A stretch of DNA of 64,000 bases, taken from NCBI RefSeq assembly GCF_013315695.1, contig NZ_CP054353.1; one strand, 5' to 3'. Each line of letters begins with the position of its first letter. The stretch's first letter is position 1. Position numbers and translations under genes: made by a program. The DNA is from Escherichia coli (GTDB lineage Bacteria > Pseudomonadota > Gammaproteobacteria > Enterobacterales > Enterobacteriaceae). Below, piece after piece: positions 1,163-7,181 of this stretch. The notes under the pieces are model-generated. The model made no database searches. It was not told the DNA's origin and saw only the letters and a list, made by a program, of their open reading frames with translations.

Positions 1163-1516
1163 ATGTCATTTCTGTTACCCATCCAACTCTTCAAAATTCT
1201 TGCCGATGAAACCCGTTTGGGCATCGTTTTACTGCTCAGCGAGCTGGGAGAGTTATGCGTCTGCGATCTCTGCACTGCCCTCGATCAGTCGCAGCCCAAG
1301 ATCTCCCGCCATCTGGCATTACTGCGTGAAAGTGGGCTATTGCTGGACCGCAAGCAAGGAAAGTGGGTTCATTACCGTTTATCGCCGCATATTCCAGCAT
1401 GGGCGGCGAAAATTATTGAGCAGGCCTGGCGATGCGAACAGGAAAAGGTTCAGGTGATTGTCCGTAACCTCGCCAGACAAAATTGTTCCGCAGACAGTAA
1501 GAATATTTGTAGTTAA
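1163..1516 (+). CDS. arsR: Arsenical resistance operon repressor ArsR (ArsR/SmtB family)
   Basis: 117-aa ORF with winged-HTH and the As(III)-binding motif ELCVCDLC; followed by arsB and arsC. Confidence 0.9.
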   Translation: MSFLLPIQLFKILADETRLGIVLLLSELGELCVCDLCTALDQSQPKISRHLALLRESGLLLDRKQGKWVHYRLSPHIPAWAAKIIEQAWRCEQEKVQVIVRNLARQNCSADSKNICS

Positions 1517-1570
1517 AAAATTTATCTAAACACATATGAATATTCGAATGTGTTTTATCAAGGAGGCATG

Positions 1571-2860
1571 ATGTTACTGGCGGGCGCTATCTTTGTCCTG
1601 ACCATCGTATTGGTTATCTGGCAGCCGAAAGGTTTAGGCATCGGCTGGAGTGCGACACTGGGCGCCGTACTGGCGTTAGTTACTGGCGTGGTCCATCCGG
1701 GCGATATTCCGGTGGTGTGGAATATCGTCTGGAACGCGACGGCGGCGTTTATAGCCGTCATTATCATCAGCTTGCTGCTGGATGAGTCCGGCTTTTTTGA
1801 ATGGGCGGCGCTGCACGTCTCACGCTGGGGCAATGGGCGCGGTCGCTTGCTGTTTACCTGGATTGTCCTGCTCGGTGCTGCCGTTGCAGCTCTGTTTGCC
1901 AATGATGGCGCGGCGCTTATTTTGACACCGATTGTCATCGCCATGCTGCTGGCTTTAGGGTTCAACAAAGGCACTACGCTGGCGTTTGTTATGGCGGCCG
2001 GATTCATTGCCGATACCGCCAGCCTGCCGCTTATTGTCTCTAACCTGGTGAATATCGTTTCGGCAGATTTCTTTAGCCTCGACTTTCGCGAATACGCCTC
2101 GGTGATGGTGCCGGTGGATATCGCTGCAATACTGGCTACCCTGGTGATGTTGCATCTCTATTTCCGCAAAGATATTCCGCAGAACTACGACATGGCGCTG
2201 CTAAAATCTCCCGCAGAAGCGGTTAAAGATCCTGCCACCTTCAAAACTGGCGGGGTTGTTTTACTGCTTCTGCTGGTGGGATTTTTCGTCCTGGAACCGC
2301 TCGGCATTCCGGTAAGCGCCATTGCGGCAGTGGGCGCGCTGATATTATTTGTCGTCGCTAAACGCGGTCATGCGATTAATACGGGTAAGGTGCTGCGCGG
2401 TGCGCCCTGGCAGATTGTCATCTTCTCGCTCGGCATGTATCTGGTGGTTTATGGCCTGCGCAATGCCGGATTAACGGAATATCTTTCTGGCGTACTCAAC
2501 GTGCTGGCGGATAACGGCCTGTGGGCGGCGACGCTCGGCACCGGATTCCTCACCGCCTTCCTCTCTTCTATTATGAACAATATGCCGACGGTACTGGTTG
2601 GCGCGTTGTCCATTGATGGCAGCACGGCATCTGGTGTCATCAAAGAAGCGATGGTTTATGCCAACGTAATTGGCTGCGATTTGGGGCCGAAAATTACACC
2701 GATTGGTAGCCTGGCAACGCTGCTCTGGCTGCACGTACTTTCGCAGAAGAATATGACTATCAGCTGGGGATATTACTTCCGTACAGGGATTATCATGACC
2801 CTGCCGGTGCTGTTTGTGACGCTCGCCGCGCTGGCGCTTCGTCTCTCTTTCACTTTGTAA
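1571..2860 (+). CDS. arsB: Arsenite/antimonite efflux pump ArsB
   Basis: ORF 1550..2860 is a polytopic membrane protein; start moved to ATG 1571 ([10 protein letters not shown]..., 429 aa), 4 nt after RBS aggagg at 1561-1566. Confidence 0.9.
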
Positions 2861-2872
2861 TGAGATACTGAT

Positions 2873-3298
2873 ATGAGCAACATTACTATTTATCACAACC
2901 CGGCCTGCGGCACGTCGCGTAATACGCTGGAGATGATTCGCAACAGCGGTACAGAACCGACCATTATCTATTATCTGGAAACTCCACCCACACGCGATGA
3001 ACTGATCAAGCTCATTGCCGATATGGGGATTTCCGTTCGTGCGCTGTTGCGTAAAAACGTTGAGCCGTATGAGGAACTGGGCCTTGCAGAAGATAAATTT
3101 ACTGACGATCGGTTAATCGACTTTATGCTGCAATATCCCATCCTGATTAACCGCCCGATTGTGGTGACACCGCTGGGAACTCGCCTGTGCCGCCCTTCAG
3201 AAGTGGTGCTGGAAATTCTGCCAGATGCGCAACAACGCGCGTTCACCAAGGAAGATGGCGAGAAAGTGGTTGATGAGGCGGGTAAACGCCTGAAATAG
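2873..3298 (+). CDS. arsC: Arsenate reductase ArsC (glutaredoxin-coupled)
   Basis: 141-aa ORF MSNITIYHNPACGTSRNTLEMI... with the catalytic Cys in the HNPACGTSR motif; last gene of arsRBC. Confidence 0.9.
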   Translation: MSNITIYHNPACGTSRNTLEMIRNSGTEPTIIYYLETPPTRDELIKLIADMGISVRALLRKNVEPYEELGLAEDKFTDDRLIDFMLQYPILINRPIVVTPLGTRLCRPSEVVLEILPDAQQRAFTKEDGEKVVDEAGKRLK

Positions 3299-3299
3299 C

Positions 3300-3321
3300 T
3301 AAAGGGGGATATGCCCCCTTA
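3300..3321. terminator. Hairpin agggggatatgccccctt between convergent arsC and the ArsR-family regulator
   Basis: 7-bp GC-rich stem (aggggg.../...ccccct) immediately after the arsC stop, followed by tatttgtt. Confidence 0.5.
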
Positions 3322-3639
3322 TTTGTTCTTCGTGGCTCCTTCGCCATCTGTTTTGCTGTTTACGCAGCACTCCTCACGTAAAAATTCAATTATCGCTTCC
3401 AGCATTGCGTATTGCGAAACACACATCAGCGTCCGACTCTCACGGTTTTGTTTGACCAACCCTACCGATACCAGTGCTGAAATATGGTGACTGAGTGTAG
3501 AGCCGGGTATCCCAAGCTGCTTTTGCAACTCACCGACCGGCAAACCTTGTTCCCCCGCTTTGACCAGATGCTTAAATATGAACAAACGGGTCGGGTGACC
3601 TAGCTCTTTCAGCGCTTTAGCAACTTCTTCCAACTGCAT
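3319..3639 (-). CDS. ArsR/SmtB-family transcriptional regulator with C-terminal vicinal cysteines (candidate organoarsenical or metal sensor)
   Basis: ORF 3319..3702; preferred start ATG at 3639 (MQLEEVAKALKELGHPTRLFIFKHL..., 106 aa) preceded by SD gagggga; HTH LPVGELQKQLGIPGSTLSHHISALVSVGLV; C-terminal EECC pair; divergent from the ArsP-like permease. Confidence 0.7.
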   Translation of the reverse strand: MQLEEVAKALKELGHPTRLFIFKHLVKAGEQGLPVGELQKQLGIPGSTLSHHISALVSVGLVKQNRESRTLMCVSQYAMLEAIIEFLREECCVNSKTDGEGATKNK

Positions 3640-3663
3640 ATGACTCCCCTCTGTCTGGTTGAT

Positions 3664-3720
3664 ATTTCGATAATACCAGAAATATCTTGATTTGAATTTC
3701 ATTTCGATTATTCTGGAAAT
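3664..3720. promoter_or_regulatory. Two 20-bp dyad-symmetric sites (ATTTC-N10-GAAAT) in the divergent promoter region; candidate operator
   Basis: atttcgataataccagaaat (3664-3683) and atttcgattattctggaaat (3701-3720) are 16/20 identical, each with 5-bp inverted arms; they sit between the regulator start (3639) and the permease start (3746). Confidence 0.4.
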
Positions 3721-3745
3721 ATAGATTTATTCAATGAGGTTACGT

Positions 3746-4747
3746 ATGAGTAGTTGGCTTGCGATGCTGCAAGATGCCGCAGAGATGTTTGTGTTTCTCG
3801 CCGTCGAGCTTTCTTTGCTGTTTATAGTGATTAGTGCCGGTGTCAGCCTGATAAGACAAAAGGTGCCAGACCATAAAATCCAGCAGATGATGGGGGCCAG
3901 AAAAGGGAGAGGCTATCTCCTGGCTGCTCTGTTGGGAGCCGTTACCCCGTTCTGTAGTTGCTCGACAATACCCATGTTACGTGGATTGTTATCAGCGAAA
4001 GCCGGGTTTGGTCCGACCCTCACTTTTTTATTTGTTTCCCCATTACTTAATCCCATTATCGTCGGGTTAATGTGGGTGACCTTTGGCTGGAAAGTTACCT
4101 TGTTGTACGAGATTATCGCCGCCGGCGTCTCCGTACTTGCCAGTATTATCCTGGATTCCCTGGGATTTGAACGTCATATCATTGCCAGTAAAAGCTCATC
4201 AGCAAATTGTTGTGCTCCAGCCAAAACTTCGCCGGGGACGACATATACGCCAATAAAAGTGAGTTGCTGTAGTCCAGCGGCTAAAGCCATTGAGAAACCT
4301 GTAGTAAACTGTTGCAGTACCAAAGCTGTGGTAAGTATTAATCCCATAAAACTAGCCACCAAAGATGCGTTGCAACAGTTTAAAGATGTACTGCCATATC
4401 TTTTGTTAGGGGTATTAATAGGCTCTTTTATTTATGGCTTTATTCCCTCAGAGTGGATTGCCGCTCATGCAGGGGCAGATAATCCCTTCGCCATCCCATT
4501 GAGCGCCGTTGTTGGTATTCCGCTATATATCCGGGCAGAGGCAGTTATCCCTCTGGCATCTGTTTTGATGACAAAAGGAATGGGTCTGGGAGCATTAATG
4601 GCATTAATCATCGGCAGTGCCGGCGCAAGCCTGACGGAAGTGATATTACTTAAATCAATGTTCAGAATACCGATGATAGTTGCATTCCTGACGGTTATCT
4701 TAGGTATGGCTATCTTGATGGGCTATTTGACTCAAATGCTATTTTAA
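3746..4747 (+). CDS. arsP: ArsP-like permease (putative organoarsenical efflux permease) with a Cys-rich cytoplasmic loop
   Basis: Polytopic membrane ORF (3734..4747; start preferred at ATG 3746 after SD tgagg). Contains TPFCSCSTIP (nt 3944-3973), which matches the TPFcSCSxxP motif I recall for ArsP methylarsenite permeases; also has three CC pairs (NCCAP, SCCSP, NCCST). Confidence 0.6.
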   Translation: MSSWLAMLQDAAEMFVFLAVELSLLFIVISAGVSLIRQKVPDHKIQQMMGARKGRGYLLAALLGAVTPFCSCSTIPMLRGLLSAKAGFGPTLTFLFVSPLLNPIIVGLMWVTFGWKVTLLYEIIAAGVSVLASIILDSLGFERHIIASKSSSANCCAPAKTSPGTTYTPIKVSCCSPAAKAIEKPVVNCCSTKAVVSINPIKLATKDALQQFKDVLPYLLLGVLIGSFIYGFIPSEWIAAHAGADNPFAIPLSAVVGIPLYIRAEAVIPLASVLMTKGMGLGALMALIIGSAGASLTEVILLKSMFRIPMIVAFLTVILGMAILMGYLTQMLF

Positions 4748-5113
4748 ATAGATGCCAGCAGTAAACTATAAGGAGTATTGTGAGTGCCTTATCCTTCTGA
4801 GTAGAAAATCATAGATAGGATAATCCTTAAAAATAACAAATAACTTAACTAATGCTTTGAGAATGATGACGGATCCGTCAGTAAGTCATCAATCGACAAT
4901 CACCACGCAATCATGCTTCTCTGACATTTTATCGGAGAAGCAATGTCTCTTTGTCTCAGTATCATCCCCCTTTTAAAGGGTAGATTTCAGTCGCCAATAC
5001 AACACATTTTTAAATACACTTTAACCTGGTTCATTATTACACATCTAAAACATCACAAAAATATCACTTCACACACTATCGGAGAACATCATAACTTCGG
5101 TAATGACTCCAAC

Positions 5114-5617
5114 TTATTGATAGTGTTTTATGTTCAGATAATGCCCGATGACTTTGTCATGCAGCTCCACCGATTTTGAGAACGACAGCGACTTCCGTCC
5201 CAGCCGTGCCAGGTGCTGCCTCAGATTCAGGTTATGCCGCTCAATTCGCTGCGTATATCGCTTGCTGATTACGTGCAGCTTTCCCTTCAGGCGGGATTCA
5301 TACAGCGGCCAGCCATCCGTCATCCATATCACCACGTCAAAGGGTGACAGCAGGCTCATAAGACGCCCCAGCGTCGCCATAGTGCGTTCACCGAATACGT
5401 GCGCAACAACCGTCTTCCGGAGCCTGTCATACGCGTAAAACAGCCAGCGCTGGCGCGATTTAGCCCCGACATAGCCCCACTGTTCGTCCATTTCCGCGCA
5501 GACGATGACGTCACTGCCCGGCTGTATGCGCGAGGTTACCGACTGCGGCCTGAGTTTTTTAAGTGACGTAAAATCGTGTTGAGGCCAACGCCCATAATGC
5601 GGGCTGTTGCCCGGCAT
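5114..5617 (-). CDS. insB: IS1 InsB (expressed as InsAB' transposase by -1 frameshift)
   Basis: 167-aa [28 protein letters not shown]... overlapping the insA 3' end in the -1 frame. Confidence 0.9.
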
Positions 5618-5811
5618 CCAACGCCATTCATGGCCATATCAATGATTTTCTGGTGCGTACCGGGTTGAGAAGCGGTGTAAGTGAACTGCAGTTGCCATGT
5701 TTTACGGCAGTGAGAGCAGAGATAGCGCTGATGTCCGGCGGTGCTTTTGCCGTTACGCACCACCCCGTCAGTAGCTGAACAGGAGGGACAGCTGATAGAA
5801 ACAGAAGCCAC
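5536..5811 (-). CDS. insA: IS1 InsA (transposition inhibitor / N-terminal part of InsAB' transposase)
   Basis: 91-aa [40 protein letters not shown]... with zinc-finger Cys motifs; the A6C frameshift motif ttaaaaaactc is present at its 3' end. Confidence 0.95.
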
Positions 5812-6142
5812 TGGAGCACCTCAAAAACACCATCATACACTAAATCAGTAAGTTGGCAGCATCACCCATACAACGACATAATAAAATATCAGCAAGAATT
5901 CCAAAAAGAATGTTACAAGCAAGTTAAAGATTTTACAACACCCTCTCGATACAATAGAATTAAAAAATGGGCACAAATGTCTGAATATCAATTCGAAATA
6001 TTTCAACACGATACGTTTCATCCTAAAAAAATGTCATACGCACCTTATTTAAAGAGATCGCTACCTGATGAAAAAACTATAAATTATGGGGTAGAAATAG
6101 AAACACCAATTGGCAAAAGAATTCGCTGGTAATGACTCCAAC

Positions 6143-6646
6143 TTATTGATAGTGTTTTATGTTCAGATAATGCCCGATGACTTTGTCATGCAGCTCCACC
6201 GATTTTGAGAACGACAGCGACTTCCGTCCCAGCCGTGCCAGGTGCTGCCTCAGATTCAGGTTATGCCGCTCAATTCGCTGCGTATATCGCTTGCTGATTA
6301 CGTGCAGCTTTCCCTTCAGGCGGGATTCATACAGCGGCCAGCCATCCGTCATCCATATCACCACGTCAAAGGGTGACAGCAGGCTCATAAGACGCCCCAG
6401 CGTCGCCATAGTGCGTTCACCGAATACGTGCGCAACAACCGTCTTCCGGAGCCTGTCATACGCGTAAAACAGCCAGCGCTGGCGCGATTTAGCCCCGACA
6501 TAGCCCCACTGTTCGTCCATTTCCGCGCAGACGATGACGTCACTGCCCGGCTGTATGCGCGAGGTTACCGACTGCGGCCTGAGTTTTTTAAGTGACGTAA
6601 AATCGTGTTGAGGCCAACGCCCATAATGCGGGCTGTTGCCCGGCAT
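6143..6646 (-). CDS. insB: IS1 InsB (InsAB' by frameshift)
   Basis: Identical 167-aa InsB ORF. Confidence 0.9.
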
Positions 6647-6840
6647 CCAACGCCATTCATGGCCATATCAATGATTTTCTGGTGCGTACCGGGTTGAGAA
6701 GCGGTGTAAGTGAACTGCAGTTGCCATGTTTTACGGCAGTGAGAGCAGAGATAGCGCTGATGTCCGGCGGTGCTTTTGCCGTTACGCACCACCCCGTCAG
6801 TAGCTGAACAGGAGGGACAGCTGATAGAAACAGAAGCCAC
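6565..6840 (-). CDS. insA: IS1 InsA
   Basis: Identical 91-aa InsA ORF. Confidence 0.95.
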
Positions 6841-7181
6841 TGGAGCACCTCAAAAACACCATCATACACTAAATCAGTAAGTTGGCAGCATCACCGAATT
6901 CGCTTATCAAATCATTACCAGAATATAATCCCATAATATTGAACATTAGCGCTTTATAATCATTGAATAAAAATAGATTTTATGCACCTTTAAAAAAAGG
7001 CTATTTTATGGGGCGATGGATACTCATGTCACGCCCCAAAATTAACAGAATTAAACTAAACAGAAGGGATATAAACATCAGACAGGTTTACGTTACTATC
7101 AGGCATATCGCCTCAGAATCAGATGAAAACTATAAAGAAATATCTATTATGGTTTTAATATTTGTTGATAAGGATAGTAAC

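Follow-up and report, generated by a model that had tools for sequence, protein, structure and literature searches.

Why does an Escherichia coli chromosome that already holds a canonical arsRBC operon carry, directly downstream of it, a further ArsR-like regulator gene divergent from a permease gene? This arrangement is found in the 64,000-nucleotide stretch of E. coli DNA analyzed here (contig NZ_CP054353.1), the whole of which we call the window. A first-pass annotation made from the letters had described a 106-residue regulator with a C-terminal EECC sequence and no CVC site next to a permease carrying TPFCSCSTIP, and had proposed that the pair confers organoarsenical resistance. Both open reading frames and all of these sequence features are present, the permease motif supplying Cys70 and Cys72. 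We conclude that the module is probably an R-As(III)-inducible repressor/efflux unit, where R-As(III) is a trivalent organoarsenical of the methylarsenite type, and that it is of the SpArsR/arsP kind known from Shewanella putrefaciens 200. Orthology of the regulator to SpArsR, the operator and linkage to ars genes support this functional assignment, which we draw from sequence comparison. The module consists of three parts.

3319..3639, minus strand: gene for an SpArsR-type ArsR/SmtB repressor of 106 residues (Pfam, NCBIfam and PDB matches, alignment with SpArsR)
3640..3745: divergent control region of 106 bp with both ribosome-binding sites, the candidate promoters and both operators
3746..4747, plus strand: gene for an ArsP-like permease (PF03773 / DUF318) of 333 residues (Pfam, AlphaFold model, AlphaFold Database (AFDB) matches)

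The regulator and SpArsR

Profile searches identify the regulator as a winged-helix protein of the ArsR/SmtB fold, with matches to Pfam HTH_20 (2.9e-14) and HTH_5. Within NCBIfam it exceeds the cut-off of the generic ArsR/SmtB model HTH_metalloreg (61.7 bits, cut-off 55), and no specific NCBIfam model was passed. The protein contains three cysteines, Cys73, Cys91 and Cys92, the latter two in the C-terminal sequence ...REECC..., and it lacks the ELCVCDLC motif, which aligns to LPVGELQ. All three cysteines are invariant in 21 regulator orthologues, down to 50% identity.

The best PDB match is AfArsR (6J05, E 3e-10), in which the sequence ENCC, comprising Cys95 and Cys96, aligns exactly with EECC of the E. 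coli protein. A cysteine after the vicinal pair, equivalent to AfArsR Cys102, is found neither in the window regulator nor in 17 of the 20 other aligned orthologues; the three regulators with a cysteine in the later tail are all from Aeromonas (A. australiensis, A. allosaccharophila and A. aquatica).

SpArsR of S. putrefaciens 200 is selective for methylarsenite (MAs(III)) and has been reported to be unresponsive to As(III). When SpArsR and the arsP promoter were used as a biosensor in E. coli cells, 1 µM monomethylarsenite (MMAs(III)) produced 73% of full derepression and 50 µM As(III) produced 9%. We obtained the SpArsR sequence from Text S3 of a 2025 biosensor paper (PMC12124457), which gives a codon-optimized SpArsR (Sput200_1227) together with the native 222 bp upstream of arsP (Sput200_1226). 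SpArsR and the E. coli regulator are 57.6% identical over 92 residues at a constant offset of 10, and the alignment pairs SpArsR Cys83, Cys101 and Cys102 with Cys73, Cys91 and Cys92, respectively. The recognition-helix segment IPGSTLSHHISAL is identical in the two proteins. By this alignment the regulator is orthologous to SpArsR, the MAs(III)-selective repressor. The suggestion of the first-pass annotation that the vicinal C-terminal cysteines would fit a trivalent organoarsenical sensor agrees with what is observed, given that they align with SpArsR Cys101/102 and are not followed by an equivalent of AfArsR Cys102. Their codons are located as follows.

3364..3369, minus strand: codons for Cys91-Cys92, the predicted two-coordinate site for a trivalent organoarsenical

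The operators

The spacer between the two genes contains a pair of 22-nucleotide direct repeats that are 37 bp apart, measured from start to start.

3664..3685: operator O1, ATTTCGATAATACCAGAAATAT, with an internal dyad and conserved across genera
3701..3722: operator O2, ATTTCGATTATTCTGGAAATAT, 82% identical to O1

The dyad of O1 is a perfect 8-bp one, GATATTTC-N10-GAAATATC, at 3661-3686. O1 occurs once in the window, against a chance expectation of 0, and within the window no O1/O2 operator was found upstream of arsRBC. In the S. putrefaciens arsP promoter the site AATTCGATAATACCAGAAATATC is identical to the O1 sequence ATTTCGATAATACCAGAAATATC of E. coli at 22 of 23 bases, and this promoter holds two more related operator copies; outside the operator motif the E. 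coli and S. putrefaciens spacers are not alignable. The motif is kept at the corresponding position in Aeromonas, Citrobacter, Buttiauxella, Limnobaculum, Desulfovibrio and the plasmid copies, and matches to a degenerate operator pattern (21 loci) are confined to regulator/permease spacers. A promoter scan of the spacer returned 3 sites where 3.5 are expected by chance, and no -35/-10 hexamers were assigned; both operators overlap every candidate promoter among the predicted hexamers. As judged by alignment, the protein and the DNA recognition elements are both orthologous to those of a system with a known inducer.

The permease

The permease is a full-length member of Pfam ArsP_1 (PF03773, the former DUF318), matching model positions 3-293 of 294 with an E-value of 6.5e-52. 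NCBIfam contains no ArsP model. The sequence TPFCSCS is invariant in 30 of 30 permease homologues. A C(S/T)C motif is present in all ArsP homologues of ars operons and is preceded by 'tPF' in cluster 2 (Yang et al., PMC4435449), and since tPF marks that cluster the TPFCSC of the E. coli protein fits ArsP cluster 2. Two parts of the gene are of particular interest.

3944..3964, plus strand: TPFCSCS codons (Cys70, Cys72; motif TPFCSCSTIP), the predicted substrate-binding thiol pair
4196..4333, plus strand: codons of a central loop rich in cysteine pairs, residues 151-196, with CC at 155/156, 174/175 and 189/190

An AlphaFold model built with 29 homologues (predicted local distance difference test (pLDDT) 81.6, predicted template-modelling score (pTM) 0.77) consists of two helical halves, approximately residues 1-140 and 200-333, around a loop at 151-196 that is disordered (pLDDT <50). 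The model places Cys70 and Cys72 in the break that separates helices 55-66 and 71-83, a type of position at which transporters bind substrate. The loop is hypervariable in length and sequence. Its CC pairs are found, depending on position, in 19-27 of 30 homologues, and some are missing from short-loop and the most distant permeases.

Variation in loop length brings the permeases to between 296 and 380 residues. The loop of the Craterilacuibacter sp. RT1T permease (L029) consists of ~7 tandem 'KPVEPKxSCC' units, and in marine short-form permeases the loop is reduced to a CCSSTCG-like stub. The PDB holds no solved structure that is related to the permease in sequence, and a Foldseek search of the model against the PDB gave nothing significant, its matches being to elevator-type and bile-acid transporters at E >=0.14, and no fold was assigned. 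Matches in AFDB at a TM-score of ~0.8 are other PF03773 permeases, one of them an 'Arsenic resistance permease' of Arcobacter.

Gene neighborhoods

Close relatives of the E. coli permease were surveyed in a genome-contig scan that gave 24 loci, none of them from Campylobacter or S. putrefaciens. The conserved unit is the divergent regulator/permease pair, which across genera has been joined to ars genes in no fewer than six ways.

E. coli, E. whittamii: arsRBC beside the pair
Citrobacter prophages, phage Chris1: arsRDABC beside the pair
IncI-gamma and IncF plasmids: regulator-arsH-ECF sigma-arsD-arsA (ECF, extracytoplasmic function), divergent from the permease
Six Aeromonas species: regulator-arsR-arsD-arsA-x-GAPDH-arsJ-acr3-arsC
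Buttiauxella: pair beside arsC-arsB-arsR and arsH
Craterilacuibacter, Crenobacter: arsR-x-arsD-arsA-permease-acr3

In the closer plasmid relatives examined (IncI, IncF) the permease gene stands beside arsH, which appears to be co-transcribed with the regulator gene. ArsH oxidizes trivalent organoarsenicals (PMC6205960). In C. jejuni, ArsP and Acr3 divide the work between them (PMC4435449), and the presence of Acr3 or ArsB alongside the permease speaks against As(III) as the substrate of the permease.

The IncI-gamma plasmid pM105 (L008 2992-6896) carries regulator-arsH-sigma-arsD-arsA without arsB or acr3, with a gene for a ModE-like winged-helix protein beyond arsA. Because arsB and acr3 are absent, the ArsP-like protein is the only permease available to the ArsA of this plasmid. 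The genes listed for the IncF plasmid pPE15 (L009, pPE15-IncF) are regulator-arsH and the permease only.

Weighing of other explanations

A number of observations count against an organoarsenical function, namely the way in which the SpArsR sequence was obtained, the distance to Campylobacterota permeases, the named models that match the permease, the wide occurrence of CSC, the invariant Cys73 and the existence of pairs without ars neighbors. With regard to the first of these, SpArsR was reconstructed from a machine-converted PDF in which two dropped bases were repaired by joining frames. The reconstruction yields a protein of 105 residues whose cysteines, at 83, 101 and 102, match the published numbering (Cys101/102), and on this ground we regard it as valid. 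With regard to the second, identity to Campylobacterota permeases in AFDB is only 28-35%: an 'Arsenic resistance permease' of Arcobacter is 28% identical, and Campylobacter and Helicobacter permeases are 33-35% identical.

The only named NCBIfam models that match the permease are those of the SO_0444 Cu/Zn efflux family (NF033936; 108.9 bits, E 2.8e-31, full-length alignment) and of SaoE (NF040736; 84.9 bits), and both scores are far below the respective cut-offs of 300 and 325. In SO_0444 Cu/Zn exporters and SaoE, too, no shared motif is more highly conserved than CSC (Haft, bioRxiv 10.1101/2022.07.06.499078). The first-pass annotation had taken TPFCSCS as diagnostic for methylarsenite permeases, and this claim has to be given up: C(S/T)C is universal in ArsP, and CSC is a necessary feature of ArsP yet not specific to it. 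Because it is common to both, the motif alone cannot separate an organoarsenical permease from a metal exporter. The module might be an SO_0444-like exporter of soft metals (Cu, Zn, Cd or Hg) whose proximity to arsRBC is incidental. In favor of this, the SO_0444 family is the best named model and has the CSC, SO_0444 is required during growth under Zn or Cu stress (PMC3219624), the cysteine-rich loop would suit thiophilic metals, and the pair stands by itself in several marine bacteria. We nevertheless consider it improbable. On the SO_0444 model 85-126 bits are also reached by permeases from undoubted ars operons, so the 108.9 bits of the E. coli protein represent superfamily background. Further points against soft-metal efflux are that the partner regulator of SO_0444 is of the MerR/ZntR type and not an ArsR (PMC3219624), that regulator and operator align as orthologues of those of the MAs(III) sensor SpArsR, and that the ars linkage occurs in at least six independent arrangements.

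The invariant Cys73 (21 of 21 regulators) is a conceivable third ligand and leads to a different alternative, in which the permease exports inorganic As(III) or Sb(III), replacing ArsB in some hosts as the membrane partner of ArsA, and the regulator is a three-cysteine As(III) sensor formed by Cys91, Cys92 and Cys73 of the other subunit. In Craterilacuibacter and Crenobacter the permease gene directly follows arsD-arsA, on the IncI/IncF plasmids with arsD-arsA and no arsB or acr3 it is the sole permease present, and a coupling of ArsP to ArsA has been proposed earlier (PMC6205960). This we hold to be unlikely, as ArsB is already encoded in the window and ArsA is not, and Acr3 in the Craterilacuibacter and Aeromonas ars islands would leave a further As(III) exporter superfluous. 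The sole reason for discounting Cys73 as a third As(III) ligand is that SpArsR, which has the same three cysteines (Cys83 at this position), is reportedly unresponsive to As(III).

The pair is also found alone, with no ars neighbors, in Aeromonas veronii, Shewanella sp. D64 and Vibrio splendidus, and it is on account of such standalone pairs that explanations outside arsenic are kept, at low probability. In addition to soft metals, the substrate might be another thiol-reactive, non-arsenical compound, with the proximity to ars genes reflecting co-selection or shared chemistry. In favor of this, the pair is widespread in marine Gammaproteobacteria without ars neighbors and frequently has a gene for a SigZ-like ECF sigma factor in its company; against this are the induction of the closest studied system by sub-micromolar MMAs(III) and the apparent co-transcription of arsH with the regulator on plasmids. 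We regard such a substrate as very improbable.

A last alternative retains organoarsenicals as the substrate, and we think it no more than an outside chance. According to it the permease clade would be a dual-mode pump in which the CC pairs of the loop serve as a cytosolic capture and hand-off domain, driven by proton-motive force where the permease stands by itself, as on the E. coli chromosome, or, where arsD-arsA are present, docked to ArsA as an ATP-driven pump. Docking may take place on the IncI/IncF plasmids that lack arsB and acr3, and in Craterilacuibacter and Crenobacter, where arsD-arsA lie immediately upstream. ArsP-ArsA coupling has so far been a proposal, noted in a review (PMC6205960).

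Distribution, selection and the K-12 deletion

The module is present at this site in 2224 of 5426 complete E. coli genomes (~41%). A relative of the permease is encoded on 1001 PLSDB plasmids, 639 of them conjugative and many derived from poultry or pigs; these ~1,000 permease-bearing plasmids come chiefly from Escherichia, Salmonella, Citrobacter or Klebsiella. Relative to E. whittamii and plasmid pM105, the ratio of nonsynonymous to synonymous substitution rates (dN/dS) is 0.03-0.04 for the regulator and ~0.10 for the permease, and both genes are under strong purifying selection. The RefSeq annotation, the occurrence in 2224 genomes and the low dN/dS together indicate that neither open reading frame is due to chance.

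In Shigella, permease copies that are 97% identical are shortened, with 257 residues in S. flexneri 2a 301 (A0AB36PK37) and 223 residues in S. sonnei (A0A0I0R8U0), which suggests that the permease gene is undergoing pseudogenization there.

The first-pass annotation had stated that the module is not part of the K-12 locus, and at this position K-12-type chromosomes indeed have 300 bp in its stead, in which a fossil of the regulator gene is retained.

3319..5017: segment missing in K-12-type chromosomes; homology breaks at 3318 and resumes at 5018
3351-3412 (corresponding to 3651-3712 of the HB101 locus L035): K-12 regulator fossil, the decayed, in-frame 3' end of the gene

Within the 300 bp that replace window positions 3319-5017 in the K-12-type chromosome of HB101, 62 bases align with the 3' end of the regulator gene. 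Read in frame, the remnant gives YTMLDAIIGISRREYCVNSKIA and then a stop, as compared with YAMLEAIIEFLREECCVNSKTDGE in the window regulator. Since a decayed in-frame piece of the regulator gene remains, the module was lost by deletion in the K-12 lineage, and an origin of the module as an inserted island was rejected because K-12 types keep this fossil. Sequences resembling repetitive extragenic palindromic (REP) elements adjoin the fossil.

Gene calls and surroundings of the locus

At the module the window is 100% identical to the complete chromosome of AF3, an E. coli blood-culture isolate. RefSeq names the two AF3 proteins 'ArsR/SmtB family transcription factor' (WP_001175590.1, 106 residues) and 'permease' (WP_001572035.1, 333 residues). 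The permease start at ATG 3746 is the RefSeq choice, has GAGG 6 nucleotides upstream and is the same in orthologues. A longer permease reading frame of 337 residues (3734-4747) was considered, and its start at 3734 was rejected in view of the ribosome-binding sites and of how the orthologues align; a 127-residue regulator reading frame starting at 3702 was likewise rejected in favor of the 106-residue frame that opens with MQLEE, every orthologue beginning with MQLEE or MELEE.

The window opens with the end of gor, followed by dinQ, arsR, arsB and arsC. The arsRBC context (1163..3298, plus strand) is based on RefSeq annotation of the AF3 locus and on an NCBIfam PRK10141 match of 232.6 bits. 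The regulator gene lies on the opposite strand to arsC, 20 nucleotides past the arsC stop.

1163-1516, plus strand: arsR of the inorganic-arsenic operon, encoding an ArsR with a CVCDLC site
1571-2860, plus strand: arsB of the canonical arsRBC operon
2873-3298, plus strand: arsC of the canonical arsRBC operon
3302..3320, plus strand: terminator-like GC-rich hairpin (7 pairs, 5 GC) with a T-run, where arsC and the regulator gene converge
4914..4942, plus strand: terminator-like hairpin of 11 pairs, 3' of the permease gene

The hairpin at 3302..3320 could be a single terminator-like site for both arsC and the regulator gene. Farther downstream, in the yhiS region, two identical copies of IS1 (5099-5866 and 6128-6895) flank a 261-bp 3' remnant (5867-6127) of a gene for a 407-residue hypothetical protein. 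In AF3, which is otherwise identical, the same gene is intact (L001 9304-10527) and there is one IS1 only; compared with AF3, the window strain has lost ~1.2 kb between the IS1 copies.

Other loci that carry the pair

A gene for a SigZ-like ECF sigma factor recurs by the regulator gene or in the linked ars cluster in IncI plasmids, Vibrio splendidus, Aeromonas allosaccharophila and Pseudoalteromonas (L008 5208-5753, L038 5485-6099, L019 2731-3258 and L027 6957-7436), and no anti-sigma partner was identified at these loci. The lambdoid temperate Citrobacter phage Chris1 (L041, ON041214) and related prophages (L005-L007, L016) carry the pair as cargo. The Citrobacter prophages also hold arsRDABC, the cargo being placed between replication genes and dinI/rusA; with the pair and ars genes on a phage, arsenic resistance can be phage-borne.

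A Desulfovibrio sp. contig with conjugation genes nearby (L040 1-3461, 4771-6300) encodes two PF03773 paralogues. One belongs to a divergent regulator/permease pair, and the other has an N-terminal extension containing CCC and lies in a cluster arranged as arsR-methyltransferase-permease-thioredoxin/ArsD-like-Fer2_BFD-SBF (Acr3-like). Two additional ars-island reading frames, one of 171 residues 3' of arsA in Aeromonas (L014 4201-4716) and one of 168 residues between arsR and arsD in Craterilacuibacter (L023 5184-5690), gave no NCBIfam match. An IncHI2 plasmid of Salmonella Kentucky (L010 6563-8023) carries a distant pair (regulator 50% and permease 49% identical) with the same three cysteines and the same operator type, alone between insertion sequence elements.

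Proposed function and its implications

For the SpArsR/arsP-type unit that we favor, the following mode of action can be proposed. Without inducer, a dimer of the repressor would sit on O1 and O2 and silence both its own gene and that of the permease. R-As(III), which needs two thiolates, would bind Cys91-Cys92 at the C-terminal end of the dimerization helix and, by homology to SpArsR, the repressor would be released. As there is no third ligand like AfArsR Cys102, inorganic As(III) should induce poorly. The permease would then export R-As(III), presumably by proton-motive force as in Campylobacter ArsP. MAs(III) induction and efflux by the module are what we infer from these comparisons and, with the arsRBC operon next to the module, the locus would deal with trivalent arsenic in inorganic and organic form alike.

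Arsenic-methylating microbes make methylarsenite, which is seen as an ancient antibiotic, and roxarsone and other aromatic arsenicals found wide use in feed for poultry and pigs. If our reading is correct, ~41% of complete E. coli genomes hold a dedicated, inducible organoarsenical defense beside arsRBC, and K-12 and its derivatives, the standard host for organoarsenical work, are a natural deletion mutant of the system. The regulator and its two compact operators would serve as an enterobacterial MAs(III) biosensor part. Literature searches found no description of the E. coli module, and databases give both genes generic names only. What results is a better annotation and a prediction open to testing; it is not a new principle, and it should not surprise specialists.

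Comparison with known systems

The R773-type or chromosomal E. coli ArsR (type 1, CVCDLC), encoded 1.8 kb upstream, has the ArsR/SmtB fold in common with the module's regulator. The two proteins are only 31.6% identical over 57 residues, and the metalloid site is located elsewhere. The SO_0444 and SaoE exporters share a superfamily and the CSC motif with the permease, whereas SO_0444 has a partner regulator of another type and the context of the E. coli gene is one of arsenic and not of metals.

C. jejuni ArsP, which effluxes methylarsenite and trivalent roxarsone, resembles the E. coli permease in belonging to PF03773, in the C(S/T)C motif of its membrane domain and in having its gene beside that of an As(III) exporter in an ars locus. 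From the 28-35% AFDB identity of Campylobacterota/Arcobacter homologues, the similarity to ArsP itself is expected to be distant. The E. coli clade differs from it by a long disordered loop with cysteine pairs and by a divergent regulator of its own.

AfArsR of Acidithiobacillus ferrooxidans (PDB 6J05), a type 2 As(III)-responsive repressor, likewise has a vicinal cysteine pair at the end of the C-terminal dimerization helix. Its third ligand, Cys102, is peculiar to AfArsR in this comparison, the E. coli regulator having no cysteine after the pair.

The closest parallel is SpArsR/arsP (Sput200_1227/Sput200_1226), although several differences are evident. The E. coli regulator is without the 10-residue N-terminal extension of SpArsR and has a 14-residue tail after the cysteine pair; its spacer is 106 bp long with two operators, as compared with at least 222 bp and about three operators in S. 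putrefaciens; and, unlike the S. putrefaciens pair, the E. coli module abuts arsRBC. The likeness, judged from the regulator and the promoter DNA, extends to the divergent layout, the cysteine pattern, the recognition-helix segment and the operator motif.

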